Under the pieces are notes generated by a model. That model had not been told where the DNA came from. It saw nothing but the letters and a program-made list of their open reading frames with translations, and did no database searches. Shown piece by piece: positions 24,331 to 51,470 of a stretch of 64,000 nucleotides of DNA (positions are counted from its first letter, which is position 1; each line of letters begins with the position of its first letter). The stretch is from contig JAGLOO010000037.1 in assembly GCA_023138875.1 (NCBI GenBank), positions 23,471-87,470 on the forward strand, read 5' to 3'. The translations under genes and the position numbers were made by a program. This DNA is from Bacteroidales bacterium. GTDB lineage: Bacteria; Bacteroidota; Bacteroidia; Bacteroidales; GCA-2748055.

Positions 24331-24352
24331 GCGGTCTGGACGGGACTCGAAC
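24331..24352. repeat. distal att direct repeat: 22-bp copy of the tRNA-Asp 3' end
   Basis: GCGGTCTGGACGGGACTCGAAC is identical to 51449-51470, which is the T-loop-to-3'-end part of the intact tRNA-Asp. Confidence 0.85.
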
Positions 24353-24463
24353 TTACAAATACTCATGATTATTGATGATCTTCTACACCCCTTGTATAAA
24401 GGGCTGTTCAGCAACTCTCCTGTCAGACAAAGTTATCAAATCTAATCAAATGTTGGTAATTTT

Positions 24464-24484
24464 ATGACCCCTATAGTAACCCCG
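24464..24484 (+). repeat. 21-nt motif ATGACCCCTATAGTAACCCCG, repeated near the other element end (candidate arm-type recombinase/Xis site)
   Basis: 19/21 identical to 51373-51393 (ATGACCCCCATAGTGACCCCG) in the same orientation. Both lie inside the element, 112 and 56 nt from the core repeats. Confidence 0.45.
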
Positions 24485-24499
24485 CTTATGATTTTTTCA

Positions 24500-24507
24500 T
24501 AGATTTG
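24500..24507 (+). promoter_or_regulatory. candidate -7 box (TAGATTTG) upstream of the integrase
   Basis: Matches TAnnTTTG. Being only 10 nt from the ATG at 24518, it favours the downstream ATG at 24536 (MASFRF...) as the real start. Confidence 0.3.
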
Positions 24508-24517
24508 TCAAGGTCAA

Positions 24518-25789
24518 ATGTTAAAATGTATCGCTATGGCAAGTTTTCGATTCGCTCTCCGGGATCCCAAAGCCGAAAGGGAAACCCGAATCCGCCTACA
24601 GGTAAGGTATGGATCAAATAAGGTAACCGTTTATTTTGGTGAAAGTGTACACCCAAATCATTGGAACCAGGGATCACAAAAGGTTAAAGGAATCAAAACC
24701 GCCCCTGAGATTAACGGGCGTCTTGAAAACATCAGAACGGCCGCAAAGAATACCCATGGCCAATATCTCAACACGCATGATCAAAAGGAGCCGCCACCTG
24801 GCGAGCTGAAGAAGCTCATTGAAATTGCGCTAAATCTGCGATCAAAAGAGCCAGAGCTTGATTTCTTCGGTTACTTCGAGAAGTTCATTAAAATCCAAAC
24901 TTTAAGATGTGAGACAGACGGCAAGGATCCTCGCAAGACTGTCGTAAAGGATTATGATCGCTCCTTGGAACTTTTGCAGGAATACTCTCGGAAATACATG
25001 AAACTTGAGTTCGGCAATATTGATGAAGAGTTCTATCACAAATATGTCAAATTCCTGAAAGAAGCCAAGGCGTTCAAAGTGAACACCGTTGGCAAGCACA
25101 TCAAATGTCTGAAGTCATTCTTAAACTGGTCAACGGGAAAGGGGTATAATGATAATCTAACCTTCCGGACCAGGGAATTCAAGGTTCTTACTGAAGAAAG
25201 CGTTAACTTTTATCTGACTGAACAGGAGCTTCAAATAATGAAAGACCTGGATCTGAGGCCCGAGCTTGAGCGTTACCGGGATTCATTTTTAATTGCAGCT
25301 TGGACCGGCCTGAGGCATTCTGATTTCTCCAGGTTGACAGAGGAAAACATTGACTATGAGGATAAGGTTATCCGGATTCAGACCAAGAAAACCGGCGAAT
25401 CGGTGGTGATCCCATTCTTGCCAGAGTTGAAAAATGTCATAGAGAAGTACCAGGAAAAGGATCTTCCATCCTACGCGAACCAGCCGATGAACCGGTACCT
25501 TAAAGAAATCGGCAGAACCATGTCCCAAAAGGTTCAGGAACTAAATATGAATGGTGAGCTAAAGTTGAAGGATTATTCCCGGTTGACTACTCATGTCGGT
25601 CGGAGGTCTTTCGCATCAAATATGTATTTTCGGGGCATCGACATTGAGATGATCATGGCAATCACCGGCCACAGGACCGAAAAGCTATTCCGTCAATATA
25701 TAAAGGTGTCAGGAGAGGATAAAGCCGCCAAGTTCCTGAAGCAAGCCCAAGAACACAAACCAGTTATCAACCTCAAAATCGCTCAATAA
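24518..25789 (+). CDS. tyrosine recombinase / site-specific integrase (Bacteroidota IntDOT-like with N-terminal arm-binding domain)
   Basis: AAWTGLRHSD (Arg), THVGRRSFASNMY (HxxR) and ITGHRTEKLFRQYIKV (His...Tyr). N-terminal FRFALRDPKAERETRIRLQVRYG resembles the arm-DNA-binding domain. Confidence 0.9.
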   Translation: MLKCIAMASFRFALRDPKAERETRIRLQVRYGSNKVTVYFGESVHPNHWNQGSQKVKGIKTAPEINGRLENIRTAAKNTHGQYLNTHDQKEPPPGELKKLIEIALNLRSKEPELDFFGYFEKFIKIQTLRCETDGKDPRKTVVKDYDRSLELLQEYSRKYMKLEFGNIDEEFYHKYVKFLKEAKAFKVNTVGKHIKCLKSFLNWSTGKGYNDNLTFRTREFKVLTEESVNFYLTEQELQIMKDLDLRPELERYRDSFLIAAWTGLRHSDFSRLTEENIDYEDKVIRIQTKKTGESVVIPFLPELKNVIEKYQEKDLPSYANQPMNRYLKEIGRTMSQKVQELNMNGELKLKDYSRLTTHVGRRSFASNMYFRGIDIEMIMAITGHRTEKLFRQYIKVSGEDKAAKFLKQAQEHKPVINLKIAQ

Positions 25790-25843
25790 TAATATGAAAG
25801 TGGGGACAATATCCCAGACCAGTGAAGTATTAATTACGCTGAA

Positions 25844-26515
25844 ATGAACAAATCAAGAGGGTTTTATCTCGCCCAGGAACTGTGGCACTTTGTAGTCATG
25901 AATCTTCCCCCCTATGAAGCATTTAAACAGAAATATGCTTCTTATCTTCAAGAACTTAAAACAAAAGGGGAGAAAGAAACATACCATAATGCTTATATTG
26001 CACTCTGTGATAATCGCACTCGATATGTTGGATTTGATTTAGATTATCTCCAGACTATCTCTGAGATTCGTAGCTATATCTTGAGAGAAGTTACCAACAT
26101 GAGAGAAAGAACTCCACCTCCTGAGGTGACGAATTTCAACTTCGATCTTGATAACGAAATGTATGCTGAATTATATGATATTCTTGCGAAGAAACTTGAG
26201 ATTGTAGACCTAGAAAAAACTGATATTTCGACTTTTAGGAATGTACTGTCTCATGATTGGAATTCACATGAAGAGAAGATTTATTTGTGTAGCAAGACTA
26301 ATGAATTTGCATTAGCAGCTTCTATCATTGAAAAACAATTCGAGAGATTCACACCTAAAAATATAGAAACTTCTAAAAAGTTCATTTCGAAAAGGGGAAT
26401 CCCAATTACCTCGAATAATATTAGCAGTAGTAATTCGCAGACAAGGAAAGTCGGAGGACTCCCAAACAAGGAAAAAATAACATCCTTGATAACAAACCTA
26501 TTCGCAAAACATTAA
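25844..26515 (+). CDS. hypothetical protein
   Basis: 223-aa ORF co-directional with the integrase. No motif recognised. Confidence 0.5.
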   Translation: MNKSRGFYLAQELWHFVVMNLPPYEAFKQKYASYLQELKTKGEKETYHNAYIALCDNRTRYVGFDLDYLQTISEIRSYILREVTNMRERTPPPEVTNFNFDLDNEMYAELYDILAKKLEIVDLEKTDISTFRNVLSHDWNSHEEKIYLCSKTNEFALAASIIEKQFERFTPKNIETSKKFISKRGIPITSNNISSSNSQTRKVGGLPNKEKITSLITNLFAKH

Positions 26516-26594
26516 GTTTATTAAGCCATCTTAATGACTTAATCCCTTCTTATCCATTTTTTTTAGATTTTTGATTTATGCTTAACAATCAAGC

Positions 26595-26921
26595 ATGATG
26601 TTGAGCATCTATTGTCAATATAAACCAGAGGATATGAAAAAGGATGTAACTCAAGAGGGGTGCAATCATGGGAATGATTTCAGCTTAACAAAACCGATTT
26701 TAACCTTTACTGAAGGATGTCAACTTACTGGAATCAGTAACAGTTACATGTACAAACTAACATCTCAAAGGAAAATTCCTCATTTCAAACCAAACGGAAA
26801 ACTGATCTATTTTGACAGAGGTGAGTTAATTTCTTGGTTAAAGTCAAATCGTATTACCACTGTCAAGGAAGAGCTGGCTCAGTCCAAATCCAAAAACGGT
26901 GATAATAATAAAGGAGGATGA
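26595..26921 (+). CDS. excisionase-type helix-turn-helix DNA-binding protein
   Basis: LTFTEGCQLTGISNSYMYKLTSQRKIPHFKPNGKLIYFDRGELISWL matches the Xis/MerR-like HTH_17 pattern. True start may be the internal M (MKKDV, ~26634). Confidence 0.65.
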   Translation: MMLSIYCQYKPEDMKKDVTQEGCNHGNDFSLTKPILTFTEGCQLTGISNSYMYKLTSQRKIPHFKPNGKLIYFDRGELISWLKSNRITTVKEELAQSKSKNGDNNKGG

Positions 26922-26924
26922 GAG

Positions 26925-27236
26925 ATGGAAATATTAACTGCTGAATATAAAGCACACCTGGAAGAGGTAGCGCGCAAAGCTGGTGCCGAAGAGGCGATGA
27001 AGGTGCTAGAGGAGCAGATGGATGGGCAAACCCAGAAAAGAAAAAAACACCTGGTCCCTGTAAAGCAACTCTCCAAGGAAATCGGCGTATCCGTCCCCAC
27101 CCTCATCCGACACCGTAACAATGGCTTAATTGAGGGATTTCGATTCGGAGGTCGCATTTTATATGATGTAGACCAGGTACTGGGGGAAATGCAAAGCACG
27201 CTGAGGATAAAAAAGAAAGGGCCGCACAATGACTAA
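26925..27236 (+). CDS. second excisionase-type HTH protein
   Basis: VPVKQLSKEIGVSVPTLIRHRNNGLIEGFRFGGRILYDVDQV follows the same HTH-plus-wing pattern. Confidence 0.55.
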   Translation: MEILTAEYKAHLEEVARKAGAEEAMKVLEEQMDGQTQKRKKHLVPVKQLSKEIGVSVPTLIRHRNNGLIEGFRFGGRILYDVDQVLGEMQSTLRIKKKGPHND

Positions 27237-27636
27237 ATCATCGAACGGCCCGAATTATCTTTATAACGCACAGGATAAAGATAAGCAATTATTTCTACAG
27301 ATATTCAGGAATCAAGTAGAAAATGAAACAGGAAAATCAATTTCCCAACTGAAAAGAGACAAAATTCTTGCCAGGGATAACTATCAGTGCTGTGCGTGTG
27401 GAAAAAAACATCTGCTCGGCATCTATCTTCTTAAGGATACACCCTCCTTCCTATCCAAAAAAGAAATACCTGCAGTGTATCATGTCACTCTTTGTCTTGT
27501 ATGCAGAATCAGACTGTTTCTGATAGATTGTGGTCTGGTGATCAATGTGGATAAGGCTTGTGATTTCTGGTGTCGTATCTACCATTCAGGAATTTACAGA
27601 GCAGAGCAATACCTCAATAATCTGGCATTACCATGA
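27229..27636 (+). CDS. Cys-rich hypothetical protein (degenerate HNH-like zinc ribbon?)
   Basis: ARDNYQCCACGKK...HVTLCLVCR has two CxxC pairs. Overlaps both neighbours (8 nt and 4 nt). Confidence 0.4.
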   Translation: MTKSSNGPNYLYNAQDKDKQLFLQIFRNQVENETGKSISQLKRDKILARDNYQCCACGKKHLLGIYLLKDTPSFLSKKEIPAVYHVTLCLVCRIRLFLIDCGLVINVDKACDFWCRIYHSGIYRAEQYLNNLALP

Positions 27637-28460
27637 ATAAAAGCCCAGCATTCTTACTATATCCCAGGGACTTCCTTGAAGGAACAGAAGATATGACCTA
27701 TGAAGAAACAGGAATGTATATCCGCCTTCTTTGCCATGAATGGGAGCGGGGATATTTACCTGCTGATAAAGGTAGGTTAAGCCGACTCTTAAGGGTACCC
27801 TTAAGCACCCTTGAGGTACCCTGGCAAATATTGAGCGAAAAATTTGAGGAAAAAGACGGAAAATTGTTCAATTCTCGCCTGGAGAATGAAAGAAAATCCA
27901 GAATTGAATACATAGAGGGGCAAAAACTTAAAGGAACTATTGGAGCCTTTCTCAAAATCCAGAAGCGGCAACTCCTTAAAAAAGAGTATGATAAGTTGAA
28001 GTCCTCCGTTTTAGAAATTGATACCAAGGGAATGGATAAGGGTACCCTAGAGGCAACCCTTAAGAGTACCCTTAAGGCTAGCTTAAGCACGCGCGTTGAA
28101 AATGAAGATGGTAATATTTGTATTGATAATAGTAGTATTAAGTATAGTAGTTACTATGATAAACAAATAGAGTTAGCTCAGGTAGAGAATAACCTTCAAT
28201 ATGAGGAAGTAGTAAAAATCCTATTCGGAAACAATTCTCTGAAACAAAAGCTATCTGCCGTCCTCTCCCTTCGTACACAGCTATCATTTGAGCAATCCAA
28301 AGAGCTAATGTTCTACAAAGCGAAACACAAAATCTCTTTCGGAGAGATCCTGGTTGAAATGGAAGGATGGAAGCCCCTCACCCAAAAACACACCACAGTA
28401 TTTGGTTCCTTCAAAACCTTCATGAAAAACAAGTACCCCGAACTAAAGAAAACCTCATGA
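27633..28460 (+). CDS. DUF1376 (YdaU-like) phage replication-associated protein
   Basis: PAFLLYPRDFLEGTEDMTYEETGMYIRLLCHEWERGYLP is the characteristic DUF1376 N-terminus. Confidence 0.7.
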   Translation: MNKSPAFLLYPRDFLEGTEDMTYEETGMYIRLLCHEWERGYLPADKGRLSRLLRVPLSTLEVPWQILSEKFEEKDGKLFNSRLENERKSRIEYIEGQKLKGTIGAFLKIQKRQLLKKEYDKLKSSVLEIDTKGMDKGTLEATLKSTLKASLSTRVENEDGNICIDNSSIKYSSYYDKQIELAQVENNLQYEEVVKILFGNNSLKQKLSAVLSLRTQLSFEQSKELMFYKAKHKISFGEILVEMEGWKPLTQKHTTVFGSFKTFMKNKYPELKKTS

Positions 28461-30229
28461 TCGAAGCATTCAAGAAATATCAAGCTGCCGGATTCGCCAC
28501 CCTTCCAACCAAACAGGACAAATCACCTGATGTGAAAGGAACCTGGAAAGGTGGTATACAGGATCCAGAGGCATACCGAACCGCTCATGGCATTGGAATC
28601 ATTTGCGGGAAACTATCCGGAGGGTTTGAATGCGTGGATTTTGATAATCACTTCGGAGATGCAAAGGAAATCATTTCGGAATTTTCCCGGATCGAGGAGG
28701 TGAAGGAAATCTTCACAAAATATTCCTTTCCTATTGAATCAACCGTATCCGGTGGGTTTCACCTCATTTACCGGTGCAGCACTATTGCAGGGAACCAAAA
28801 GCTGGCACAAAGACCAAAAAAAGAGGGTGACCGGTGGCGCCCGGATACGATCATCGAGACCAGAGGCGAAGGCGGGTACTTTTGCGTGGATCCGACACCT
28901 GGTTACAAAGTGATCAGGAATGATATCACACAGGTACCGGAAATTACTCCGGAGGAAAGAGAGATCCTACTATCTGCTGCAAAGAGTTTCAATACCTGGA
29001 ATGATACCCGGAAGAACGAGTTTGAAGAAACAGATCGGCCAGGAGATATTTTTAACACCAAGCCTGAAGCAGTTGAAGAGACGAGATCCGCCCTGATCGG
29101 TGCCGGGTGGAAGGAACTCACCCCCGAACTCTGGCAGCGGCCAGGGAAGAAGAAAGGAATAAGTGGCACATTGGGGAAAGTGGCTCCGGGCGTATTCTAC
29201 AACTTCAGCAGCAATGGGCACCCATTCGATTCCGGAAAGGCATACACGCCCTTCCAGGTAATCGGACTTCTGAAATACAACGGTGATTTTAAAACCTTCG
29301 CGAAAGAGCTTGCCGAAAGATATGAACTGAGTAAACCTCCAAAAACCCGCTCCGGGAATTCCCCGACTGGATCTACTGGTAATAGCAAACCAAAGGAGAC
29401 TGGTCCGGAACTCGAACAGATCCTCAACAAGGCATATATCGATCTTGAAATCCCGGTATCAAAACCACCAGTGATTATGCGAATACGCGATTATGAAGCC
29501 ACCAGGTCAATTGATAGGCGACTGTTCACCCTGGGTAACTTCTCCGCCGTAATTGGTAAAAGTAAGAGTAAAAAAACCTTCCTTGGCACTCTCTTCCTGG
29601 CATCTGCAGCAGACAATGGATCTATCCAAAATAAAATCATTGCAGATTTTCCGGAAAACAAACAGGCGGTCCTGCTATTCGATACCGAGCAGAGCCGTTA
29701 CGATTCATACCTGAGCAGCTCACGAATTCCAAAAATATTGGGATATATCCCGAAGAATTTTGGCGCTTTTGACCTGCGGGAGTACTCACCCCATGAAAGG
29801 TGCAATATCATCGAATTTGGCCTTGAAAAGTGGAAAAACAGCCTCGGATTCGTGGTGATTGACGGAATAGCCGACCTGGCCACCGCGATCAATGACGAGG
29901 TAGAAGCCAGCAGGGTAGTTTCACTTCTCATGCGGTGGACCAAGATTTATAACTGTCACATTCACGTTGTGATCCATGAGAACAAAGGTGACAACAATGC
30001 AACCGGTCACCTGGGTTCTGCAATTCAAAAAAAGGCCGAGGCCATCATTTCTGTAAAGAAGGACACCAAGAAATTCCGGAGAAGCTATGTTTCCTGCACC
30101 CTGATCAGGGGAACGGCCGATTTCAATGACTTCAGTTTCATTATTAACGAAGATGGACTGCCGGAGGTTGAGGAACTTAAAATGAGTGAAGTAATGAATT
30201 TCACTGAACCCGTTAGAGATGAATTCTGA
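28457..30229 (+). CDS. bifunctional primase-polymerase (PrimPol) fused to a RecA/DnaB-like P-loop ATPase
   Basis: GIGIICGKLSGGFECVDFDNH (DxD), GGFHLIYRC and ETRGEGGYFCVDPTPGY are PrimPol motifs. The C-terminal half has AVIGKSKSKKTFL (Walker A) and GFVVIDGIADL (Walker B). Start moved to the ATG at 28457 (ATGA overlap with the upstream stop) from the track's 28367. Confidence 0.85.
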   Translation: MIEAFKKYQAAGFATLPTKQDKSPDVKGTWKGGIQDPEAYRTAHGIGIICGKLSGGFECVDFDNHFGDAKEIISEFSRIEEVKEIFTKYSFPIESTVSGGFHLIYRCSTIAGNQKLAQRPKKEGDRWRPDTIIETRGEGGYFCVDPTPGYKVIRNDITQVPEITPEEREILLSAAKSFNTWNDTRKNEFEETDRPGDIFNTKPEAVEETRSALIGAGWKELTPELWQRPGKKKGISGTLGKVAPGVFYNFSSNGHPFDSGKAYTPFQVIGLLKYNGDFKTFAKELAERYELSKPPKTRSGNSPTGSTGNSKPKETGPELEQILNKAYIDLEIPVSKPPVIMRIRDYEATRSIDRRLFTLGNFSAVIGKSKSKKTFLGTLFLASAADNGSIQNKIIADFPENKQAVLLFDTEQSRYDSYLSSSRIPKILGYIPKNFGAFDLREYSPHERCNIIEFGLEKWKNSLGFVVIDGIADLATAINDEVEASRVVSLLMRWTKIYNCHIHVVIHENKGDNNATGHLGSAIQKKAEAIISVKKDTKKFRRSYVSCTLIRGTADFNDFSFIINEDGLPEVEELKMSEVMNFTEPVRDEF

Positions 30230-30303: not shown

Positions 30304-30600
30304 ATGAAAGAAACAATTGCTTATGAATGTGAGTTTTGCGGAAAAATCTACAAGAATCTTGCTAGCTGCAAAAGCCACGAGTACAAATGCTATTTCAATC
30401 CTCGAACACGGAGCTGCGCAAGTTGCGCTTTAAACAGATATGAGGAGCAATCGGTCTCGGAGGGGGTAACCCGAATGACACGGATTTGCCTAATGAGTGT
30501 CCCCGTAGAAGTTGAAGGATTGAAAACAAAATGTCGGCTGTATCAAGAGAAAATGCATGTTGCCAATTCAGAAATATTGGAACCCATGATTGATCAATGA
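30304..30600 (+). CDS. small zinc-finger protein
   Basis: YECEFCGKIYKNLASCKSHEYKC is C2H2-like, followed by CASCAL. Confidence 0.5.
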   Translation: MKETIAYECEFCGKIYKNLASCKSHEYKCYFNPRTRSCASCALNRYEEQSVSEGVTRMTRICLMSVPVEVEGLKTKCRLYQEKMHVANSEILEPMIDQ

Positions 30601-31939: not shown

Positions 31940-31953
31940 TGGTAAAATGTTTG

Positions 31954-44112: not shown

Positions 44113-44127
44113 TAGAAAGACTTACTC

Positions 44128-45394: not shown

Positions 45395-45901
45395 ATGGTA
45401 GAACTAACTGATGACTATCCAAATGGCTTAAGTGATGAAAATTTGTTGGCCAAAATTCAGGAATTTTCAAGTCTGGGATCGGGCTTTGGCAAAAGATCCC
45501 CAACATTTCAAGAAAGAGGGTATTATCTTCAGATGGCTCAGGTTGGTCAAAGTGAATATACGAGTCGGATCCAGGTAAGATTCGCAGATGAGACAAAATC
45601 CTTGAAAGCTGAGATATCTGAATTAAGAAAAAGCAATCAGAAATTCAGCAGGAAGGCAACTAGATTAAGCAGAGTTACTATTGGCTTCGCGATTGGCATG
45701 ATACTCTTAGCTGGGACAACTGTTTGGTATTCACAAAGGGATATGGAATCAGATCAGATCTGGAGAGATGATCAAATGACAGAATTGAAGAAAAATAATG
45801 AGTTTCTCCAGGAGCAGATCCGGATCAATGAGGAGTTGAATGGGAATATTCTCAGGTTGCTTGAACTGCAAGACCGAAGTGGTGAAATTGAATCAGAATA
45901 A
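45395..45901 (+). CDS. single-pass membrane protein with a coiled-coil tail
   Basis: 168 aa. Central TM (VTIGFAIGMILLAGTTVWY) followed by a heptad-like ELKKNNEFLQEQIRINEELNGNILRLLEL. Stop lies 6 nt before the TIR gene start. Confidence 0.5.
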   Translation: MVELTDDYPNGLSDENLLAKIQEFSSLGSGFGKRSPTFQERGYYLQMAQVGQSEYTSRIQVRFADETKSLKAEISELRKSNQKFSRKATRLSRVTIGFAIGMILLAGTTVWYSQRDMESDQIWRDDQMTELKKNNEFLQEQIRINEELNGNILRLLELQDRSGEIESE

Positions 45902-45907
45902 TGTTTT

Positions 45908-46861
45908 ATGGATAAGCAGAAGAACATATTCATCAGCTACTCAAGCAATGATCAGGACAAAGTTGGTATTTTAAAAGAATTGATAAAGATAAAAAATGGG
46001 CTAAATCCCATTGTCATTGCTGATAAACGAGAAGCCCAAAAGCCTCTAACTGACAAAGTAATTGATGGGATAGAAAAATCTGAAATAGTCGTTCCCATTA
46101 TAACGAGTAGATCAATTCATACACAATGGATGAACCAGGAGATCGGTTATTCCCTAGCGTTAAGTAGAAAGGTTACAGCTATTGTGGAAAGAGAACTACT
46201 CGATGATTTAAAAGGATTCATCCATAAACAGGTTGATCTTCCATATAATTTTTCAAGGAGTAATAATAGTGATGAAGAAAACAAAGGATTTGAATCTGCA
46301 TGCATACTTCTGGTCAACGATATCCTATTTAGCAAAGAAAAATCAATGACGTTGCCAAATCTTGCTGACAAGCATATGAATAAAATTAAGGAGAAGGTTG
46401 AAAGAGAAAAACTGGAAAGTGAAAAGGAGAGAATGCTCAATAGCCAAGAAATAGTGACTATTGCAAATCAAGCCGTGGATAATGAGCTTCTTCCTTATGT
46501 GCATGAGCAAAAGGATAAATGGAATCAGATAATTGGGAAGAATGTGCCCTATGAAACTAGTCCTAATGATCCAAATGGCATAATACTTAATCTAAGAGGA
46601 TTTGCTCTAAGTTTTGTTTGGAGGCAACCACATAGAAATTCAATTGAATCGGCCAAATTAACAGTAAGCCTTTGGGACGGTAGAATGTCTTTCATTCAGT
46701 TTAGATACCCGATTGAAGATCGTCCTGATATTATAAACGAAATGAAGTGTCAACCTTATTTAGACGATGAACTTCGTTTTAAGTGGAACAACTCAACGGA
46801 ATTGATGGATTCAAAACAAGTCGTTGATGTTGTATTCGAGTGGTTAGCTGAAGTATTCTAA
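45908..46861 (+). CDS. TIR-domain protein with an unknown ~170-aa C-terminal domain
   Basis: NIFISYSSNDQDKVGILKELI...KSEIVVPIITSRSIHTQWMNQEIGYSLAL matches the bacterial TIR (TIR_2/DUF1863-like) pattern, including the S..W...E putative catalytic Glu. Confidence 0.75.
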   Translation: MDKQKNIFISYSSNDQDKVGILKELIKIKNGLNPIVIADKREAQKPLTDKVIDGIEKSEIVVPIITSRSIHTQWMNQEIGYSLALSRKVTAIVERELLDDLKGFIHKQVDLPYNFSRSNNSDEENKGFESACILLVNDILFSKEKSMTLPNLADKHMNKIKEKVEREKLESEKERMLNSQEIVTIANQAVDNELLPYVHEQKDKWNQIIGKNVPYETSPNDPNGIILNLRGFALSFVWRQPHRNSIESAKLTVSLWDGRMSFIQFRYPIEDRPDIINEMKCQPYLDDELRFKWNNSTELMDSKQVVDVVFEWLAEVF

Positions 46862-46878
46862 TTTATATCTTTCGTGCA

Positions 46879-47124
46879 ATGTACGCCCTCACCTTCAAAC
46901 GATCCCGGTCAAAGCACATCTTGAAAGAACTCAACCATGTTGTGTCAATGGGCGAATCCTGGGATGCGACAACGGAAAAACTCATGATTACAGAGAAGGC
47001 CCTGTCCGTCTGTCGGTGGACCGTGGAGAAGCTGCAGAAAAAGATTTCTGTGCTCAGGCAGGAAATTATTGTGATTATTCCTGAGTGGAGGGAGTGGAAA
47101 AAGAATAGACAATACCAAATATAA
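46879..47124 (+). CDS. doubtful small ORF in a GC-richer spacer
   Basis: 81-aa ORF. Similar-length ORFs also exist on the opposite strand here, so coding status is uncertain. Confidence 0.25.
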   Translation: MYALTFKRSRSKHILKELNHVVSMGESWDATTEKLMITEKALSVCRWTVEKLQKKISVLRQEIIVIIPEWREWKKNRQYQI

Positions 47125-47164
47125 GAGCACAATTGTATTGCATGTAAGTTAAAATGACCAACTT

Positions 47165-47827
47165 ATGGAAGGAATGAAAATAAATTTAATAATTGCTATT
47201 ATAGGAGCGATTGTTACCTCTACCATCTCTGGTGTAAGCACTTACGTATCTCAAGATAACAAGTTTGGGGAACAAATTGAAAATTTATCCAAAGAAAGCA
47301 ACTCTAAAGGCCATCAAATTGAGATACTTACGGATGAAAATTCGACTTTGAAAAACGAAATCAATTCAAAAACGGAAAGTCATAATGCATTAATGGCAGA
47401 ACACAATGATTTAAAAGTAAAATACGCTAGATGCATCTCATCAGAAGGATCAATTACTGCAGTTGGGACAATTGATACGCGGGTTTATCAGGGACAATTA
47501 AAGACTGGAGATGAACTTGAATTTAAATTAACATCTAGTTCATTATTTATAAAAATAATCCGAGTTTCTGATAGTGGACCGATAATTTCTATTGCTGGTT
47601 GTGAAAACTATGTTACCGTTAACGAAGTAAGAATGCCAATGAATAATGAAAATCACTATCTCATTAAACCTCAATCTCCTTTAAGAGTTAGATTTACTGT
47701 AGGTTCCTGTGAAGACAATGAGAATATTGAGCCATCTCAAGTTGAAGAAATAATACTATTACTCAGGCAATTTAATGTAGATGAGCAAACCATTCAATTA
47801 GAGTATAATAGAAAATTTTTATTCTGA
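47165..47827 (+). CDS. membrane-anchored coiled-coil protein with a C-terminal beta-rich domain
   Basis: N-terminal TM (INLIIAIIGAIVTSTISGV), then the coiled segment ILTDENSTLKNEINSKTESHNALMAEHNDLKVK. Confidence 0.5.
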   Translation: MEGMKINLIIAIIGAIVTSTISGVSTYVSQDNKFGEQIENLSKESNSKGHQIEILTDENSTLKNEINSKTESHNALMAEHNDLKVKYARCISSEGSITAVGTIDTRVYQGQLKTGDELEFKLTSSSLFIKIIRVSDSGPIISIAGCENYVTVNEVRMPMNNENHYLIKPQSPLRVRFTVGSCEDNENIEPSQVEEIILLLRQFNVDEQTIQLEYNRKFLF

Positions 47828-47831
47828 ATTC

Positions 47832-48209
47832 ATGAAAAAAGCTACGTTAATATTTATCATTTTAGGTATTGTGGCGGCTAGTTGTGTCGCTCCAAAAAAA
47901 TTTCAAGCAACAACTGTAAACCTAAATAATGAGATTGATGTTTTAAGAAGTGAGACCAGAGTTCTTCGAAATGATAATTCCTCATTAAAAACGGAAATAA
48001 ATAGTATAAAGAATCAGATCTACAGACTTAACGCAGAAATTAAAAGCCTAGAGAATCAACTTCAATCCGATAAAAAAAAGCACAATGAGGATATTCAACA
48101 ACTAAATCAGCAGATTGAAAATTTTGAAACAAGAGATAGGAATTTAAGAAATTTGATTACAACCCTCCGGATTGAAGTTGCCTCATTAATGGCAGAAGTG
48201 AATAACTAA
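47832..48209 (+). CDS. coiled-coil lipoprotein
   Basis: MKKATLIFIILGIVAASC is a lipoprotein signal with lipobox. The rest is heptad-like (LRNDNSSLKTEINSIKNQIYRLNAEIKSLENQL). Start is 4 nt after the previous stop. Confidence 0.55.
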   Translation: MKKATLIFIILGIVAASCVAPKKFQATTVNLNNEIDVLRSETRVLRNDNSSLKTEINSIKNQIYRLNAEIKSLENQLQSDKKKHNEDIQQLNQQIENFETRDRNLRNLITTLRIEVASLMAEVNN

Positions 48210-48287
48210 TTATCGGCAACCAGGATCGCGCCAGGGTGGAGTCGGGGGAGAGTGTTTGGAAGGCGCAATAAAAAACACCATACTGAT

Positions 48288-48389
48288 ATGAAAGACATCG
48301 ATTACAAAGAGGAGGTACGGAAACTCATTGAGAGATTCCGGGAGATTGACCGGGAGCGGGACCAAGCTATAGGATCCAATCAGGAATAA
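48288..48389 (+). CDS. 33-aa small ORF (MKDIDYKEEVRKLIERFREIDRERDQAIGSNQE), copy 1 of a repeated mini-gene
   Basis: Below the ORF-track cutoff. Homologous to 50166-50273 at protein level and in the 10 nt upstream of the ATG (ACCATACTGA). Confidence 0.3.
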   Translation: MKDIDYKEEVRKLIERFREIDRERDQAIGSNQE

Positions 48390-48403
48390 ATTCAGAAAAC
48401 GAA

Positions 48404-48934
48404 ATGAACACTGAAAGAGCCTCATTGCACTATTATACATGGATTGAACATGCTGAAACTATTTTCATTGCAGCGTCAGAGAATTTAAAGCTATACCGTT
48501 CAGTAGTACAAGGTAGAGAGGTTGATGCTCGTGAGAGACAACTAGCGTTTTTTAGAGCAGCAGGATTACTGTTTGGAATATCAATTGAGCTCATCATAAA
48601 GGCTCGGATATTATATGAGAAACGGGAAGCTATCGAATCCGAAGAGATAAAATCACATGAAAATATTTCAAGGGAATGGCATCATAACGGACATAATGTT
48701 CTATGGCTTATCAAACACTACAGCATTGAACTTAATACGGATGAAAAACACCTGGTGGAAATACTTCAACCCTTTATGATTTGGGCTGGAAGATTTCCAT
48801 TTCCAAGAAAAGAGCATGACATACTCGATTACGAACAGGGAGAGAAGCAGCTTTCATACCCAAACAGCATTGACAAATATGTATTAAAGTTTATTGAAAG
48901 ACAAAAGTTAATTATGAGCAATAAGCACACATAA
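48404..48934 (+). CDS. helical protein, possibly HEPN-like
   Basis: 176 aa. LLFGISIELIIKARIL ... REWHHNGHNVLWLIKH resembles the HEPN helix pair (E.aLKA ... H.L..L) and contains an Rx6H spacing. By-eye call only. Confidence 0.35.
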   Translation: MNTERASLHYYTWIEHAETIFIAASENLKLYRSVVQGREVDARERQLAFFRAAGLLFGISIELIIKARILYEKREAIESEEIKSHENISREWHHNGHNVLWLIKHYSIELNTDEKHLVEILQPFMIWAGRFPFPRKEHDILDYEQGEKQLSYPNSIDKYVLKFIERQKLIMSNKHT

Positions 48935-48950
48935 ATCCCATAAATTTGGG

Positions 48951-49403
48951 TTGAAGGAATTCTCAGATCCTTACGTTTTCTTAACTTGTGGTAATTCAAC
49001 CCTGACCCGAGAAATCATGATAACATTTATTCTGAAAGTCAACCACAAGCAGGATGACAAAATTACCGCCTCCAGTTCTGAACAAAATGTGGAATTTCCT
49101 ATTTATGACAGCATTACATCTACCCACAATAAAGGCCATATGCCCGAAATTAGTCTTCATTGGTATCACGGTTTGACATTCAATACGATGAAATATCAGA
49201 AGTATAGAAACTTATTGAATGACCAGCTTGAAAGGGAAGAATTAGTCAGATTCCTTCGTAAAGATGCAATTGAAATGTTGGTTTCTGATGGAGATCTCTA
49301 CTTGAAGGCAAAAGAGTACCTCACCATAAGAGAGGATGTGGTTAAATTAGATCTGAAAATGTGGGGGATGGATGTCAACCGGATAGCACAAATTATTTTC
49401 TGA
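48951..49403 (+). CDS. hypothetical protein (middle gene of a three-gene operon)
   Basis: TTG start in the track, with a possible ATG start (MITFILKV) about 49017. 16 nt after the previous stop and 4 nt before the next start. Confidence 0.4.
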   Translation: MKEFSDPYVFLTCGNSTLTREIMITFILKVNHKQDDKITASSSEQNVEFPIYDSITSTHNKGHMPEISLHWYHGLTFNTMKYQKYRNLLNDQLEREELVRFLRKDAIEMLVSDGDLYLKAKEYLTIREDVVKLDLKMWGMDVNRIAQIIF

Positions 49404-49407
49404 TCCA

Positions 49408-49989
49408 ATGAGTATCCATGACTTTAATGACCGGTTTGGCGTTTCCGAACCCACCCCTACAGAATTCGAGAAGGCTGTAATGAAGCTGTTCATGTCACTA
49501 CCAGATGAACTAGTTAGTAAAAGCATCGAACATAATGTAAAAATACCCGGAATCGATGGTATTTATCAAATCGATATCAAGTTGACGTTTGAAGTTTTTG
49601 GCGCCAATTTTCTGGTATTGATTGAATGTAAACGATACTCCTCACCGGTGAAGCGAGAAGCAGTTCAAATTCTACATTCAAAGCTTTCAAGTCTAGGTGC
49701 ACAAAAAGGAGTCCTTGTGTCTACATCAGGATTTCAAAGAGGTGCAATTCAATATGCAAAAGAACACGGAATAGCACTGCTCCGGATTGCTGCGGGTAGA
49801 ATGACCTATGAAACTAAAAATATTTTCAGTGATGGAGAGTACCAGTATTTTAACGGAACGGAGGCCTTCCCAATATATCGAATTGAAGAATCCAGTCCTG
49901 GTTCAATTTCAATTACGATGCTAATTGATGATCATATTAACGAATTTGGAGTTTCCCTATTCAAATCAAGTGAAAATGAAAATAATTAA
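49408..49989 (+). CDS. Mrr-like (PD-(D/E)xK) restriction endonuclease-domain protein
   Basis: FEKAVMKLF...GIDGIYQIDIKL...FLVLIECKRYSSPVKREAVQILHSKL...GVLVSTSGFQRGAIQYAKEHGIAL is collinear with the Mrr catalytic domain (D...ExK). Confidence 0.75.
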   Translation: MSIHDFNDRFGVSEPTPTEFEKAVMKLFMSLPDELVSKSIEHNVKIPGIDGIYQIDIKLTFEVFGANFLVLIECKRYSSPVKREAVQILHSKLSSLGAQKGVLVSTSGFQRGAIQYAKEHGIALLRIAAGRMTYETKNIFSDGEYQYFNGTEAFPIYRIEESSPGSISITMLIDDHINEFGVSLFKSSENENN

Positions 49990-50036
49990 AACCGGCAGCT
50001 AGGGTCCAAATCACCCTAAGAGGTCAAAATAAATCC

Positions 50037-50105
50037 ATGACCACCAAAGAAAAAATCCTCCAGCTAGAGAAGGACCTGGAGGAGCTTATGAAGAAAATGG
50101 AATGA
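50037..50105 (+). CDS. 22-aa small ORF (MTTKEKILQLEKDLEELMKKME), doubtful
   Basis: Below the track cutoff. Weak resemblance to ATTEKLMITEKAL...EKLQKKISVL within 46879-47124. Confidence 0.2.
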   Translation: MTTKEKILQLEKDLEELMKKME

Positions 50106-50165
50106 TTCTCTGGCTGATATTTCCATCTTCATCACATCAACTTATATGACCAATACCATACTGAA

Positions 50166-50273
50166 ATGAATGACCAGGAAATTAAGGAAGAGGTTCAGGG
50201 GTTAATTGTACGGTTCCAGAAGGTTGACCAGGTGAATTTGATAATAATTAACTGCTATTTAACCGGTTTTTAA
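50166..50273 (+). CDS. 35-aa small ORF (MNDQEIKEEVQGLIVRFQKVDQV...), copy 2 of the repeated mini-gene
   Basis: Shares M.D...KEEV..LI.RF...D and the upstream ACCATACTGA with 48288-48389. Confidence 0.3.
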   Translation: MNDQEIKEEVQGLIVRFQKVDQVNLIIINCYLTGF

Positions 50274-50383
50274 CATTTTTATATTCAATACTTGCTTTTT
50301 TGTGCTCGATATCAGTATATTTAAGGTAACAAAAGTATTGGAGTTGCGTTAAAATATATAACCGATTTCAATATTTGTAGCCC

Positions 50384-50662
50384 ATGAACGTAGCTAAAAT
50401 TCAAAAACCTCAGCAAATCATGGCCCCGAATCCATCTGGATTGAGAGGAAAACACTATTTTAGCGCTTCTAACATTACACCACAATACATGCTAGAACTT
50501 ATTCGTTATTTCGCTCGTGCCAAATCAAGTGGTACGATATCTGACGACCAATTTACTGCCTTGATTACACTAACTCTATCCAATTTTGTTGAAGCTCAAG
50601 TTGAAAGCAAGGTGAACAGGGTAGTAATCGATCGGGTTGAACATGTGTTTAAGGTTCTGTAG
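50384..50662 (+). CDS. hypothetical protein
   Basis: 92-aa ORF. Its stop lies 1 nt before the likely start of the next gene. Confidence 0.45.
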   Translation: MNVAKIQKPQQIMAPNPSGLRGKHYFSASNITPQYMLELIRYFARAKSSGTISDDQFTALITLTLSNFVEAQVESKVNRVVIDRVEHVFKVL

Positions 50663-50663
50663 T

Positions 50664-51128
50664 ATGTGTCCAAAAAAAACCACACAGCCTGCCGTCCAGG
50701 ATAATTCGAAATCAGACGTGAAAAGCACCCAAGCTAAGATTCCTAAGGACGGAAATCCTGAGACTATTGATCCTGAAGTAATAGAAGGGCTCCCCCCGGA
50801 AATTAAAAAGGTGTTTGAATTCGGTATGCTTCAAATGCGAAGTGGCCCACATAATCCAATTATGGATAAATTGGAACCACAGCACATAGATAAGATCCTT
50901 AACATCGCAGAGAAGGACGAGGAACATTCTGACAAACAGACAACAAAACGTAGAAGATATAACCTGGTATATGTACTTCTGGGGATTTCCGTCTTTATAT
51001 TTTTGATTGTTTATCTAATCGAAATCGATAAAGAACTACTTCTAAAGATATTAGCTGCAATTACCCTTTTCGGAGCTGGTTTCGGTGGTGGATATGGGTA
51101 TAGGTATTTTCGTTCCGAATCTGAATAA
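50664..51128 (+). CDS. membrane protein, DUF2335-like
   Basis: Start set at MCPKKTT (50664). PPEIKKVFEFGMLQM...ILNIAEKDEEHSDKQ, followed by two TM helices (LVYVLLGISVFIFLIVYLI, LAAITLFGAGFGGGYGY), resembles DUF2335 architecture as I recall it. Confidence 0.4.
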   Translation: MCPKKTTQPAVQDNSKSDVKSTQAKIPKDGNPETIDPEVIEGLPPEIKKVFEFGMLQMRSGPHNPIMDKLEPQHIDKILNIAEKDEEHSDKQTTKRRRYNLVYVLLGISVFIFLIVYLIEIDKELLLKILAAITLFGAGFGGGYGYRYFRSESE

Positions 51129-51228
51129 TCTCCTTCTTCACTATCTTCCTGCAATTGGTTAAGTCAATCTCCTGGTCAATCCTCTCCAGGTCCAGATCGA
51201 TATAAATATCTGTCACTCCCTCCTTGCC

Positions 51229-51252
51229 GTGACCCGGTGACCCTCTTAACCC
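51229..51252 (+). repeat. three closely spaced TRACCC direct repeats (GTGACCC-G-GTGACCC-TC-TTAACCC)
   Basis: Read directly. Same half-site as in the 21-nt motifs at 24464 and 51373. Confidence 0.45.
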
Positions 51253-51372
51253 TCGATGCTATAAAAAAGGGCGGCCAGTTCCCCGGCCACCCTAATAGGT
51301 CAAATATCTCCGCTATGGCAGCGTAGATAAGACAAAGGTAAGGAATAAAGCTGACATAGGAATCCCGAAATA

Positions 51373-51393
51373 ATGACCCCCATAGTGACCCCG
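51373..51393 (+). repeat. 21-nt motif ATGACCCCCATAGTGACCCCG (right-end copy)
   Basis: 19/21 identical to 24464-24484 in the same orientation. Confidence 0.45.
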
Positions 51394-51405
51394 GTAAAAA
51401 AGAAA

Positions 51406-51432
51406 CCCCTGTAATCTTTTGAACTACAGGGG
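51406..51432. terminator. bidirectional hairpin terminator just downstream of the tRNA-Asp 3' end
   Basis: CCCCTGTA-atcttttgaac-TACAGGGG, flanked by an A-run and CTTTTTCT. Confidence 0.6.
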
Positions 51433-51448
51433 CTTTTTCTGTCTAATT

Positions 51449-51470
51449 GCGGTCTGGACGGGACTCGAAC
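51449..51470. repeat. proximal att direct repeat (within the tRNA-Asp 3' end)
   Basis: GCGGTCTGGACGGGACTCGAAC is identical to 24331-24352. Confidence 0.85.

Follow-up and report, generated by a model that had tools for sequence, protein, structure and literature searches.

A 27-kb element integrated at tRNA-Asp in a Bacteroidales genome joins a phage-type replication module to a predicted giant ejection-type protein and lacks recognisable morphogenesis genes

Introduction

Many bacterial genomes carry defective prophages. Cryptic prophages, which the element described here resembles, sit at a tRNA 3′ end between direct repeats, carry an integrase, partial phage modules and accessory or defence genes, and make no particles. 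An integrase, Xis/AlpA-type HTH genes, a primase-helicase and defence cargo are also the typical core of a phage satellite. PICI, P4-like, cfPICI and PLE satellites share with the element the integrase, the Xis/AlpA-type HTH, the primase-helicase replicon, an incomplete virion set, a defence-type cargo slot and a helper dependence that for the element is presumed. Unlike these satellites, it has no recognised TerS, Sid, Cpm, Ppi or capsid genes and is 27 kb long rather than about 10-18 kb; to our knowledge, a giant ejection-type virion protein occurs in no described satellite family. Its host belongs to the Bacteroidales, where satellites are essentially undescribed. The tycheposons of marine cyanobacteria are similar by layout, with a tRNA site, a tyrosine recombinase, a PrimPol-type replicase, variable cargo and no capsid or conjugation genes, although they come from a different phylum, and we know of no polyvalent virion protein described for them.

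The giant protein of the element is best compared with those of podophages. It shares the order LPD5, HExxH peptidase, LPD1 and LPD38 with phi24B gp47, Stx2 phage 86 gp35 and BS-TP4 gp3, and all have a partner gene of ~350-420 aa upstream, with partner homology shown within Bacteroidota-type loci only. In Stx phages the giant gene closes the late region, unlike the Bacteroidota-type order, in which it lies within a full morphogenesis module with the portal next; unlike in these Bacteroidota-type relatives, the giant gene and its partner stand alone in the element. Proteomics of phi24B found its homolog, gp47, in virions, and a role in ejection was proposed for it (bioRxiv 10.64898/2026.04.10.717836). 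An InPase domain, as in our protein, is also found in other phage polyvalent proteins (phage-type class: Iyer et al. 2017), and both InPase and LPD38 have been reported in phage-type polyvalent proteins only, not in conjugative-type ones.

Results

We analysed a stretch of 64,000 nucleotides (the window) from contig JAGLOO010000037.1 of assembly GCA_023138875.1. The 22-mer GCGGTCTGGACGGGACTCGAAC occurs exactly twice in it, at 24331-24352 and 51449-51470, with 0 copies expected from shuffles even when up to two mismatches are allowed; beyond the repeat, a weaker likeness runs for ~20 nt more on one side only (43 nt, 77%). These direct repeats delimit a 27.1-kb insertion in the 3′ end of tRNA-Asp(GTC), flanked by host-type genes on the left (polysaccharide export, rubrerythrin, flavin reductase) and on the right (alpha/beta hydrolase, rhamnosidase, PfkB kinase). 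The boundaries proposed in the initial annotation are thus borne out by the exact twofold repeat, the ARAGORN and Rfam tRNA calls and the host genes on either side, and the short gene overlaps that it listed were confirmed from the ORF coordinates. The gene order is reproducible, since a 42-kb contig of an independent assembly (GCA_030635075.1) is 100% identical to window positions 22976-44232. The features are as follows.

24331-24352, no strand: attL core, a displaced copy of the final 22 nt of tRNA-Asp (exact repeat)
24518-25789, +: tyrosine integrase of Bacteroidota type with arm-binding, SAM_5 and catalytic domains (Pfam, PHROGs)
25844-26515, +: DUF6617-family protein (Pfam DUF6617 3.9e-8, C-terminal half only)
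26595-27236, +: two HTH_17 (Xis/AlpA-type) DNA-binding genes, 26595-26921 and 26925-27236 (Pfam, PHROG)
27229-27636, +: 135-aa Cys-rich protein, weak HNH-like match (phrog_589 2e-3 only)
27633-28460, +: DUF1376 primosome-like protein (Pfam DUF1376 1.9e-9; phrog_9327 primosomal protein)
28457-30229, +: PrimPol primase-polymerase fused to an AAA_25 helicase-type ATPase, the replicase (Pfam, PHROG)
30304-31300, +: 98-aa Cys-rich protein, VRR-NUC-like nuclease (30597-31073) and 76-aa ORF (31070-31300) (PHROG, Pfam)
31430-31939, -: 169-aa HTH protein, divergent from the ejection cassette (weak HTH_23/HTH_Tnp_1, Pfam)
31962-32018, -: tRNA-like fragment, truncated, with a CAT anticodon (Rfam tRNA, 28.5 bits against a gathering threshold of 29, E 7.7e-4)
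32161-32955, +: paralog 1, 264 aa, a shortened duplicate with a decayed ancestral start region (alignment to paralog 2)
32976-34232, +: paralog 2, 418 aa, of the partner family that precedes giant polyvalent genes (homolog context)
34245-43550, +: 3101-aa protein, predicted phage-type polyvalent (ejection-type virion) protein (Pfam, PHROGs, tblastn)
43594-43623, -: hairpin terminator with a 12-bp stem between the convergent polyvalent and 87-aa genes (terminator scan)
43723-44415: divergent pair of an 87-aa gene (43723-43986, -) and an XRE HTH gene (44128-44415, +; HTH_3 2.9e-12)
44688-51128, +: cargo arm of 11 small genes (Pfam, PADLOC, PHROGs)
51449-51524, -: intact tRNA-Asp(GTC), whose last 22 nt (51449-51470) are the attR core (ARAGORN; Rfam 69.7 bits)

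The integrase matches Phage_integrase (7e-19), SAM_5 (4e-9) and, weakly, Arm-DNA-bind_5 (5e-4) in Pfam and phrog_1 (2e-34), and its translation shows the HxxR motif (HVGRR) and the C-terminal Tyr region. The HTH_17 calls (3.7e-10 and 1.2e-4; DUF3853 6e-5) come with a match to phrog_66 (excisionase/regulator), and the integrase and the two HTH_17 genes are confirmed. DUF1376 and the PrimPol-helicase (Prim-Pol 9.5e-8, AAA_25 5e-6; phrog_19930 4e-36) are likewise confirmed and make up, with the nuclease, a phage-type replication module whose closest relatives lie in viral contigs with packaging and other virion genes. Homologs of the PrimPol-helicase align from residue 31, which puts its true start at 28457. 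Relatives of the replicase at 56-61% identity sit in 36-40 kb viral contigs, one of which (L043) encodes TerS, TerL, portal and MuF and another (L044) TerL and a tape-measure-like gene. A homolog of the 135-aa Cys-rich protein holds the equivalent position in L073. The VRR-NUC call is weaker than claimed at first (Pfam VRR_NUC E 0.011 only), while an endonuclease assignment stands (phrog_93, 5e-10); for the 76-aa ORF, annotated as Bro-N-like, family support is absent from Pfam and PHROGs.

The 3101-aa ORF had been left without an assignment in the initial annotation; Pfam, PHROGs and tblastn place it with phage polyvalent virion-type proteins. From the N-terminus to the middle it carries InPase (residues 889-1021), LPD5 (1570-1687) and an HExxH motif at 1774, followed in the C-terminal part by LPD1 (1843-1924), a TM helix (2721-2742) and LPD38 (2754-2963), with the domains assigned by Pfam. 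It matches phrog_14770 (5e-132) and phrog_616, and tblastn aligns residues ~1400-2100 at 31% and 2157-3096 at 25% identity to the gp35 region of Stx2 phage 86, so that homology to the Stx podophage giant protein spans ~1700 aa. On these matches, it is predicted to be a phage-type polyvalent, ejection-type virion protein.

The two paralogous genes upstream are real duplicates (42% identity, E 9e-49). Paralog 1 retains a relic of its start region at 32074-32096, where ATG has become ACG with a stop after it; this relic does not share the reading frame of the current ORF. Neither paralog need be left as a mere unknown, as the initial annotation had it: all homologs of paralog 2 with gene context adjoin a giant ORF on its upstream side, which makes the family a partner that precedes giant polyvalent genes. 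An expanded HMM of the family also matches L031 (13-888), upstream of polyvalent, portal and TerL genes. The family is rare (90 representatives among 1.84 billion proteins), was seen on short contigs only, and its AF2 model for paralog 2 is all-alpha with low confidence (pLDDT 58).

We then compared what follows the giant gene in relatives. A P22-type portal gene comes after it in 19 distinct related loci (including L013, L009, L010 and L028), at ~0.1-1 kb in 18 of the 19, and TerL is also reached by the fetched DNA in 12. The sister and closest relative, L013, is 72% identical over the C-terminal LPD38 region and has the portal after its polyvalent gene. In the isolated Bacteroides phage BS-TP4, gp2 and the giant gp3 come first, then portal, TerL, a capsid-like gene and endolysin. 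Temperate Bacteroidales phages of the BS-TP4 type, like many uncultured relatives, carry the partner-giant cassette with a P22-type portal right behind it and a large terminase farther along. In the window, the giant gene is followed by the regulator pair and variable defence-like cargo where relatives have the portal. One non-sister relative, found in two samples (L011/L012), also has no portal after its polyvalent gene; in L011 a gene 72-74% identical to the 87-aa gene lies ~2 kb downstream, which hints that portal-less arrangements recur. The C-terminal 980 aa of the polyvalent protein show no rate acceleration against the portal-linked sister (67 versus 76 unique changes with outgroup L009, 77 versus 79 with L011); therefore, any loss would be recent, or the gene is still selected.

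The divergent 169-aa HTH protein has a homolog (30% identity, E 5e-14) in an equivalent divergent position in L003/L004, where an 886-aa gene (phrog_32516) comes next. This gene is missing from the window, and 357 bp of non-coding DNA follow the HTH gene in its place; a relative of it intervenes between polyvalent gene and portal in L025, the remaining portal-linked locus. The tRNA-like fragment at 31962-32018 comprises D, anticodon and T arms (model positions 9-63) and lacks the 5′ acceptor strand; ARAGORN gave no call for it.

On the right arm, the 87-aa/XRE pair is kept in L045-L053 while the genes after XRE differ between loci, so the pair is a conserved two-gene module heading variable cargo; some copies, such as that in L045, have no polyvalent gene nearby. 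The cargo (GC 35-39%) encodes a TIR-domain protein (45908-46861, TIR_2 3e-9; PADLOC ThsB-like 5e-8) and an Mrr-type nuclease domain protein (49408-49989, Mrr_cat 2e-15; PADLOC mREase_IV 5e-9), along with membrane, lipoprotein and coiled-coil proteins. PADLOC found no complete known defence system there, and 0 of 7 cargo ORFs tested had PHROG matches.

No gene-like ORF matched capsid, portal, terminase or tail families, or relaxase, coupling-protein or T4SS families (Pfam, PHROGs), in agreement with the initial annotation, and a tblastn search of the window with portal and TerL queries from the giant gene's phage lineage returned nothing, fragments included. No lysis gene was found in the element, no hijacking gene (TerS, capsid-size redirection, helper-sensing or interference) was recognised among its ORFs by Pfam and PHROGs, and searches of related sequences found no second full-length copy of its architecture. 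Outside the giant ORF, the longest unassigned ORF is 418 aa, and the right-arm ORFs are 81-317 aa.

Discussion

Judged from its gene content, the element is a phage-derived mosaic integrative element that would be unable to build virions alone. We favour, at about an even chance, a defective prophage that kept a lysogeny and replication arm and the ejection cassette, and lost its portal, terminase, capsid, tail and lysis block. Lysogeny, replication and one late cassette are the modules kept, as in defective prophages. This reading draws on the giant gene being a virion-type gene homologous to that of Stx phages, on the absence of the portal and TerL neighbours conserved in relatives and BS-TP4, on the truncated HTH-gene operon with 357 bp in place of the 886-aa gene, on the replicase relatives in viral contigs with packaging genes, on the local decay that left paralog 1 without its ancestral start codon, and on the failure to detect hijacking and transfer genes. 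Against it, and unlike in defective prophages, all backbone genes are intact (the 9.3-kb ORF included), both att cores are perfect, and the presumed deletion left no scar and no portal or TerL fragments detectable by tblastn of the window.

Those intact genes and att cores, the unaccelerated polyvalent C-terminus and the second portal-less junction with an 87-aa gene in L011/L012 all speak instead for a helper-dependent satellite, a possible but less probable reading. Such an element would excise and replicate by itself upon infection or induction of a BS-TP4-type phage, be packaged in helper capsids and load its own partner and giant polyvalent protein into them; its ejection/anti-defence protein would then enter the next host alongside its DNA, and the defence cargo would repay the lysogen. 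The general satellite layout (integrase, two Xis/AlpA-type HTH genes, primase-helicase, no morphogenesis genes) fits, the regulator-headed cargo slot resembles the defence hotspots of known satellites, and since the LPD38 regions of the element and of a portal-linked relative share 72% identity, a related helper's capsid could plausibly accept the protein. However, none of the expected hijacking functions was recognised, the relative of the minus-strand HTH gene does not adjoin a terminase, and a 27-kb element with one virion gene filling a third of its genome is unlike known satellite families. No helper is known, one paralog is decayed, no full-length second copy was found, and the partner family is rare and confined to short contigs. 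Since the sister of the window copy is L013, not L011, the shared 87-aa junction may reflect recombination of a mobile regulator module, which occurs away from polyvalent genes too. Relatives have the portal, and TerL where the DNA reaches it, which makes a prophage minus its morphogenesis block no less likely than a satellite. The initial suggestion of a satellite or mobilisable island borrowing a helper keeps some probability, but neither a hijacking gene nor a relaxase was found. An integrative mobilisable element or genomic island, moved by a helper's conjugative machinery and carrying the phage-like genes incidentally, is improbable: the SAM_5/arm-binding integrase, two HTH_17 genes and DUF6617 at the left do resemble Bacteroidota integrative-element ends and virion-building genes are missing, but no relaxase, mobilisation-protein, coupling-protein or T4SS family was found in any ORF, InPase and LPD38 are domains reported for phage-type polyvalent proteins only, and the relatives of the polyvalent and replicase genes adjoin portals or lie in viral contigs with packaging genes. 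Least probable is the autonomous virus-like element with capsid and packaging genes too divergent to detect, which the initial annotation had also offered. Several ORFs do have no family assignment, and the quality of two structure models was too low for structure searches. Yet the unassigned ORFs are only 81-264 aa long, except for the 418-aa all-alpha protein, which belongs to the polyvalent-partner family and has a relative sharing a locus with portal and TerL (L031); no space is left to encode a portal and a terminase (~640-700 aa each in the lineage), several cargo ORFs are of defence type, and the giant-protein relatives examined downstream, like BS-TP4, use ordinary portals and terminases. 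Hidden divergent structural genes are effectively excluded.

In the favoured case of a defective prophage, deletion or recombination would have taken out the morphogenesis block. Excision may still work through the integrase and Xis-type genes, and particles, if formed at all, would depend on a related helper phage. For the host, the TIR and Mrr-type cargo under the XRE regulator is probably of use as phage defence. Copying of the element by its PrimPol replicase may likewise persist; within the DUF1376 gene just upstream, the 18-bp palindrome CTTAAGGGTACCCTTAAG occurs in 2 copies (27788-27805 and 28059-28076; 0 expected), which are a candidate origin or operator.

A bounded insertion at tRNA-Asp

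The initial annotation took a 22-bp direct repeat, shared with the 3' end of a tRNA-Asp gene, as the boundary of the element, and this reading was borne out. The window contains two copies, and no more, of the 22-mer GCGGTCTGGACGGGACTCGAAC (0 copies expected, even at two mismatches), at 24331-24352 (attL core) and 51449-51470 (attR core). An intact tRNA-Asp(GTC) on the minus strand (51449-51524; ARAGORN; Rfam, 69.7 bits) has the second copy as its 22 nt at the 3' end. Partial similarity continues for ~20 nt past the repeat on the outer side of either copy (43 nt at 77%). A tyrosine recombinase gene starts 166 bp from attL (Phage_integrase, 7e-19; phrog_1, 2e-34), so that the element has both the repeat at a tRNA end and the adjacent recombinase of tRNA-integrating tyrosine-recombinase elements. 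The left flank carries polysaccharide-export, flavin-reductase and rubrerythrin genes together with two unknown genes, while hydrolase, rhamnosidase, ADP-ribosylglycohydrolase and PfkB kinase genes lie beyond the tRNA on the right. A T9SS sorting domain in the window, together with the source names of the proteins, puts the host, a MAG, in Bacteroidales. Given the repeats and the host genes on either flank, the insertion is bounded at 27.1 kb (24331-51470), with no phage genes outside the repeats. The sole other copy found, in the independent assembly GCA_030635075.1, is 100% identical across 21.3 kb of the element, and the gene order is thus no one-off assembly artefact.

Extension of the element past the repeats was ruled out, the flanks being host genes, and so was a tandem array at tRNA-Asp, the core being present in two copies only. 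The att 22-mer was also present in 15 viral contigs, which held no element homologs except weak integrase matches. Next to the tRNA-Asp, an alpha/beta-hydrolase gene is apparently split into overlapping ORFs on the minus strand (51743-52279 and 52239-52661), one of which (178 aa) aligns with just the C-terminal portion of the BD-FAE and Peptidase_S9 profiles, while the other (140 aa) gives no match; a frameshift or sequencing error may be the cause. Directly outside attL, 22244-24006 (minus strand, ~38% GC) holds genes of 256 and 332 aa with no family match, which may be host genes or leftovers of an older island at the site.

The left arm carries an ordinary phage replication module

The element comprises the following genes, ahead of a cargo region of small genes.

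Left arm: integrase (Phage_integrase, SAM_5, weak Arm-DNA-bind_5; Pfam, PHROGs)
Left arm: DUF6617 protein (Pfam/PHROGs)
Left arm: two HTH_17 proteins (Pfam/PHROGs)
Left arm: 135-aa Cys-rich protein
Left arm: DUF1376 protein (Pfam/PHROGs)
Left arm, start 28457: PrimPol fused to an AAA_25 ATPase (Pfam/PHROGs)
Left arm: 98-aa Cys-rich protein
Left arm: nuclease (PHROG endonuclease and resolvase families)
31430-31939, minus strand: 169-aa HTH protein
32161-32955: paralog 1 of the partner-protein family
32976-34232: paralog 2, the 418-aa partner protein
34245-43550: 3101-aa polyvalent protein
43723-44415: 87-aa gene (minus strand) and XRE gene (plus strand)

The ATGA-type short overlaps agree with those read initially, and the PrimPol gene starts at 28457. 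Of the gene annotated as VRR-NUC, the nuclease assignment stands through the PHROG families, whereas the Pfam VRR_NUC match itself is weak (E 0.011); the proposed Bro-N-like gene is a 76-aa ORF (31070-31300) with no family support. The nearest relatives of the PrimPol, at 56-61% identity, come from IMG/VR contigs of 36-40 kb, one of which (L043) encodes small and large terminases, a portal and a MuF-like head protein, and another (L044) a large terminase and a tape-measure-like gene. The contigs that hold PrimPol relatives in JGI metagenomes are too short to include a right arm, and local synteny was confirmed by L073 only, a 78%-identical metagenomic fragment with the order HTH_17, 135-aa gene, DUF1376 and PrimPol in common with the window. 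With replicase relatives in viral contigs that carry packaging genes, and with the synteny of L073, the left arm represents an ordinary phage replication module.

Within the DUF1376 gene, shortly before the PrimPol start, lie a perfect 18-bp palindrome, CTTAAGGGTACCCTTAAG, and, 271 bp away, a second copy with one mismatch (27788-27805 and 28059-28076; 0 expected by chance); together they are a candidate replication origin or operator.

The 3101-aa ORF encodes a phage-type polyvalent protein

Listed only by its length in the initial annotation, the 3101-aa ORF proved recognisable as a phage-type polyvalent protein through Pfam, PHROGs and a HEWWH metallopeptidase motif at residue 1774. Its Pfam domains are InPase (889-1021, 2.6e-57), LPD5 (1570-1687, 6.5e-26), LPD1 (1843-1924, 4e-20) and LPD38 (2754-2963, 3.4e-23), a single strongly hydrophobic helix spans 2721-2742, and PHROG profiles 2800-3400 positions long match at E 1e-129 to 1e-132. 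Several unrelated domains, including LPD domains and the metallopeptidase motif, are thus combined in one giant polypeptide, as in phage-type polyvalent proteins. InPase and LPD38, both present here, are listed as restricted to phage-type and not conjugative-type polyvalent proteins (Iyer et al. 2017, PMC5512222). A search with the last 1000 residues found homologs in 340 phage records, most of them Stx-converting podophages or phages of Vibrio, Ralstonia and Burkholderia (~25% identity, 94% of the query covered), versus 7 plasmid records with a polyvalent homolog, several of them phage-like; for residues ~1400-2100, identity to this Stx phage gene is 31%. The expected morphogenesis neighbourhood, an adjacent portal or MuF gene, is absent in the window, where the 87-aa gene and the XRE regulator come next.

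In phage phi24B, gp47 (LPD5, LPD1, LPD38, metallopeptidase) was detected in purified virions by proteomics and is invisible in the reconstruction, and the authors propose an encapsidated ejection protein (bioRxiv 10.64898/2026.04.10.717836). Since its homolog gp47 is found in phi24B virions, the element does carry a virion gene.

Related loci continue into a portal and a terminase

We used an alignment of the closest C-terminal polyvalent homologs to collect loci from GTDB genomes and IMG/VR, followed by tblastn with lineage-specific portals and terminase. A P22-type portal follows the polyvalent gene in 19 distinct loci, duplicate records of the same contig being left out (named portal-linked loci: L009, L010, L013, L014-L019, L022, L025, L028, L029, L031-L033 and L036). 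The gap between the two genes is ~0.1-1 kb in 18 of the 19, the remaining locus, L025, having an intervening gene resembling an 886-aa gene of other related loci. Further on, a large terminase appears in 12 of the 19, usually on the opposite strand; the other contigs end before one could appear. In L013, whose polyvalent gene is the sister sequence of the window copy (72% identity), the portal starts 15 bp past the stop codon.

Cultured relatives of the portal occur in the Bacteroides temperate phages BS-TP4, BKO1-TP3 and BF1-TP2, of 64-68 kb (PMC12694917). In BS-TP4, gp2 (393 aa) and gp3 (5391 aa) are followed in turn by the portal, an opposite-strand terminase, a capsid-like gene, a giant DGR-target protein and an endolysin, and the phage also carries large putative structural genes. 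In a Parabacteroides prophage, an integrase, regulators, two small genes and an LPD38 protein of 4970 aa precede terminase and structural genes. The L013 sequence (CAZWME010000331.1) is a 6-kb contig binned into a Planctomycetota MAG and labelled 'Pirellulales'; it is probably a mis-binned phage contig.

A different arrangement was found in L011 and L012, contigs from two samples (Logan SRR32546281 and SRR22936138), where pRha-like, ImmA-like and XRE genes, then the same 87-aa gene, come after the polyvalent gene, with no portal. In the polyvalent protein there, as far as the contig shows, a stretch that aligns with residues 418-698 of the window protein leads straight into the C-terminal LPD38 region, the central ~1440 aa (InPase, LPD5, peptidase, LPD1) being absent; the gene may run off the contig start. 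The fused segments are a case of domain shuffling, and the junction is a second one without a portal. At 58% identity, versus 72% for L013, L011 is no sister sequence of the window copy.

Partner-protein paralogs and the divergent HTH gene

Paralogs 1 and 2 had been described as two paralogous unknown genes; the paralogy is real, at 42% identity, but the family does have a context, directly upstream of giant ORFs. The partner-protein family is rare, with 8 clusters among 5.8 billion proteins and 90 representatives in a profile search of 1.84 billion, and in every recovered context (L003-L008) a member lies directly upstream of a giant ORF. An expanded partner HMM also matched the ORF upstream of the polyvalent gene of L031, a locus with portal and terminase, and reached no further locus. 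No sequence similarity could be detected between the window paralogs and the partner protein of either Stx phage 86 (gp34) or the Parabacteroides prophage. Scans of IMG/VR for close relatives gave no match to the 418-aa paralog, the polyvalent C-terminus or the integrase, and a scan of GTDB genomes with a 6-sequence paralog alignment was equally negative. The AlphaFold model of the 418-aa paralog consists of long helices (pLDDT 58, pTM 0.24), is too poor for a fold search and, at this low confidence, has no beta-rich capsid-like fold. At 32074-32096 lies a second copy of the RBS and start region of paralog 2, in which the ATG has become ACG; a stop comes after it, and the copy is not in frame with the GTG start at 32161. 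Paralog 1 is, on this pattern, a decayed duplicate whose ancestral start was lost, indicative of local gene decay or remodelling within the cassette formed by the paralogs and the polyvalent gene.

On the left side of the cassette, the divergent HTH gene is homologous to the gene that in L003/L004 precedes the 886-aa gene (phrog_32516), a relative of which sits between polyvalent gene and portal in L025. In the window it is followed by non-coding DNA only, 357 bp. The HTH protein gives weak HTH_23/HTH_Tnp_1 matches only, its homolog has no adjoining terminase, its single-sequence model (pLDDT 46) is too poor for a fold search, and PDB sequence searches with it and with the 886-aa neighbour gave nothing useful.

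Exactly at the joint between replication arm and cassette, between the divergent HTH gene and paralog 1, lies a truncated tRNA-like sequence (31962-32018, minus strand; Rfam 28.5 bits against a gathering threshold of 29, E 7.7e-4, model positions 9-63). Oriented as the tRNA-Asp, it has a CAT anticodon and a 3' acceptor-like tail to about 31948, with the 5' acceptor strand missing, and none of the related loci contains it. It may be a relic att site marking a recombination joint, or a decayed phage tRNA. Because of this sequence, a 199-aa TTG ORF is really the 169-aa gene 31430-31939.

Virion, packaging and transfer genes

No Pfam or PHROG match to a major capsid, portal or large terminase was obtained in any gene-like ORF of the window, and tblastn of the window with the lineage's own portals and TerL left no trace. 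Tail, endolysin and holin families had no match in the element, nor did any of its ORFs match relaxase, Mob, T4CP or T4SS Pfam families. Pfam, PHROGs and the lineage tblastn thereby confirm the original observation of no recognisable capsid, packaging, tail, relaxase, coupling or T4SS gene. The right arm has no room for a morphogenesis module because its largest ORF, the TIR protein, is 317 aa. Among recognisable families, TerS, Ppi, Cpm and Sid/Psu gave no match in the element ORFs.

These results set the element apart from an intact tailed prophage (Caudoviricetes), since capsid, portal and terminase as well as tail and lysis genes are missing, whereas BS-TP4 has its endolysin and large putative structural genes. 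A cfPICI has its own capsid, portal, protease and connector and no tail genes; in contrast, no head genes were found here. Like PICI and P4-like phage satellites, the element has an integrase, an AlpA/Xis-type regulator and a primase-helicase replicon, but it differs from them in having no recognisable hijacking gene. From ICEs and IMEs it is distinguished by the lack of a relaxase (Pfam families, all ORFs).

A portable regulator pair

Past the polyvalent gene, a strong hairpin (43594-43623) precedes the 87-aa gene and the XRE gene. Several unrelated metagenomes (L045-L053) have the same two genes as a conserved divergent pair (70-80% identity), not always adjoining a polyvalent gene, and the genes after XRE vary by metagenome: an AAA_15/21 ATPase, an HNH-containing set or another HTH (HTH_19). 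In this distribution, the pair resembles a portable regulatory head in front of defence-like cargo that changes from case to case.

Defective prophage or satellite

As a phage-derived tRNA island, the element belongs to an already known kind. We consider the chances about even that it is a deletion-derived defective prophage. Such an origin would fit the conserved neighbours missing on either side of the cassette, the closest relatives of both replication module and cassette lying in viral contigs with packaging and other virion genes, the decay of one paralog, and the finding of no hijacking gene; defective prophages are, moreover, common. A phage satellite is possible, though rather unlikely. 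The core of integrase, Xis-type HTH and primase-helicase is present, the genes are intact and the att cores perfect, and the cargo slot resembles those of known satellites. In a relative-rate test the polyvalent C-terminus shows no acceleration, with window versus L013 unique changes of 67 vs 76 (outgroup L009) and 77 vs 79 (outgroup L011). The second portal-less junction in L011/L012, from two samples and with the same 87-aa gene, points the same way; yet these contigs are short and the shared junction may reflect recombination and not a conserved lineage, because L011 is no sister sequence and the regulator pair is itself mobile. The failed search for hijacking genes also speaks against a satellite. 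A conjugatively mobilised island is improbable given the negative relaxase test, and a cryptic autonomous virus, akin to the virus-like element with unreadable structural genes that was first considered, is the most improbable of all; a small remainder of the probability goes to none of these readings.

Somewhat more doubtful than a satellite as such is one particular form of it, a Bacteroidales satellite without capsid or packaging genes that keeps its own giant ejection/polyvalent protein and partner protein, and would be the first example to bring its own ejectosome. Giant and partner proteins would be loaded into the capsids of a related helper, and the satellite would arrive in the new cell with its own entry and anti-defence toolkit. 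If a satellite, the element would extend phage satellites to Bacteroidota, for which a literature search returned nothing relevant, and would represent a new way to exploit a helper, by supplying only an ejected internal protein, as well as a natural system for the recruitment of 3000-aa ejection proteins into capsids. If the element is a defective prophage, its value lies mainly in annotation: the partner and giant polyvalent genes would make up a portable cassette belonging to a lineage of temperate Bacteroidales phages that is widespread and was recently brought into culture, and whose remnants carry regulator-headed slots holding variable defence-type genes.

Cargo of the right arm

In the window, the regulator pair stands at the head of eleven small genes, including those for a ThsB-like TIR-domain protein, an Mrr-type nuclease domain, and membrane, lipoprotein and coiled-coil proteins. 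PADLOC found no complete known defence system in the cargo arm, and no ThsA, the matches being at domain level only (ThsB-like TIR, 4.6e-8; Mrr/mREase_IV, 5e-9). GC falls to 35-39% in the right arm, whose cargo is variable and probably defence-related. At 47165-48209, two adjacent genes encode a 220-aa protein, whose N-terminus carries a TM helix, and a lipoprotein-like coiled-coil protein of 125 aa. The two have almost the same coiled-coil motif (NSTLKNEINSK / NSSLKTEINSIK), suggesting that they act as a pair at the membrane or envelope.
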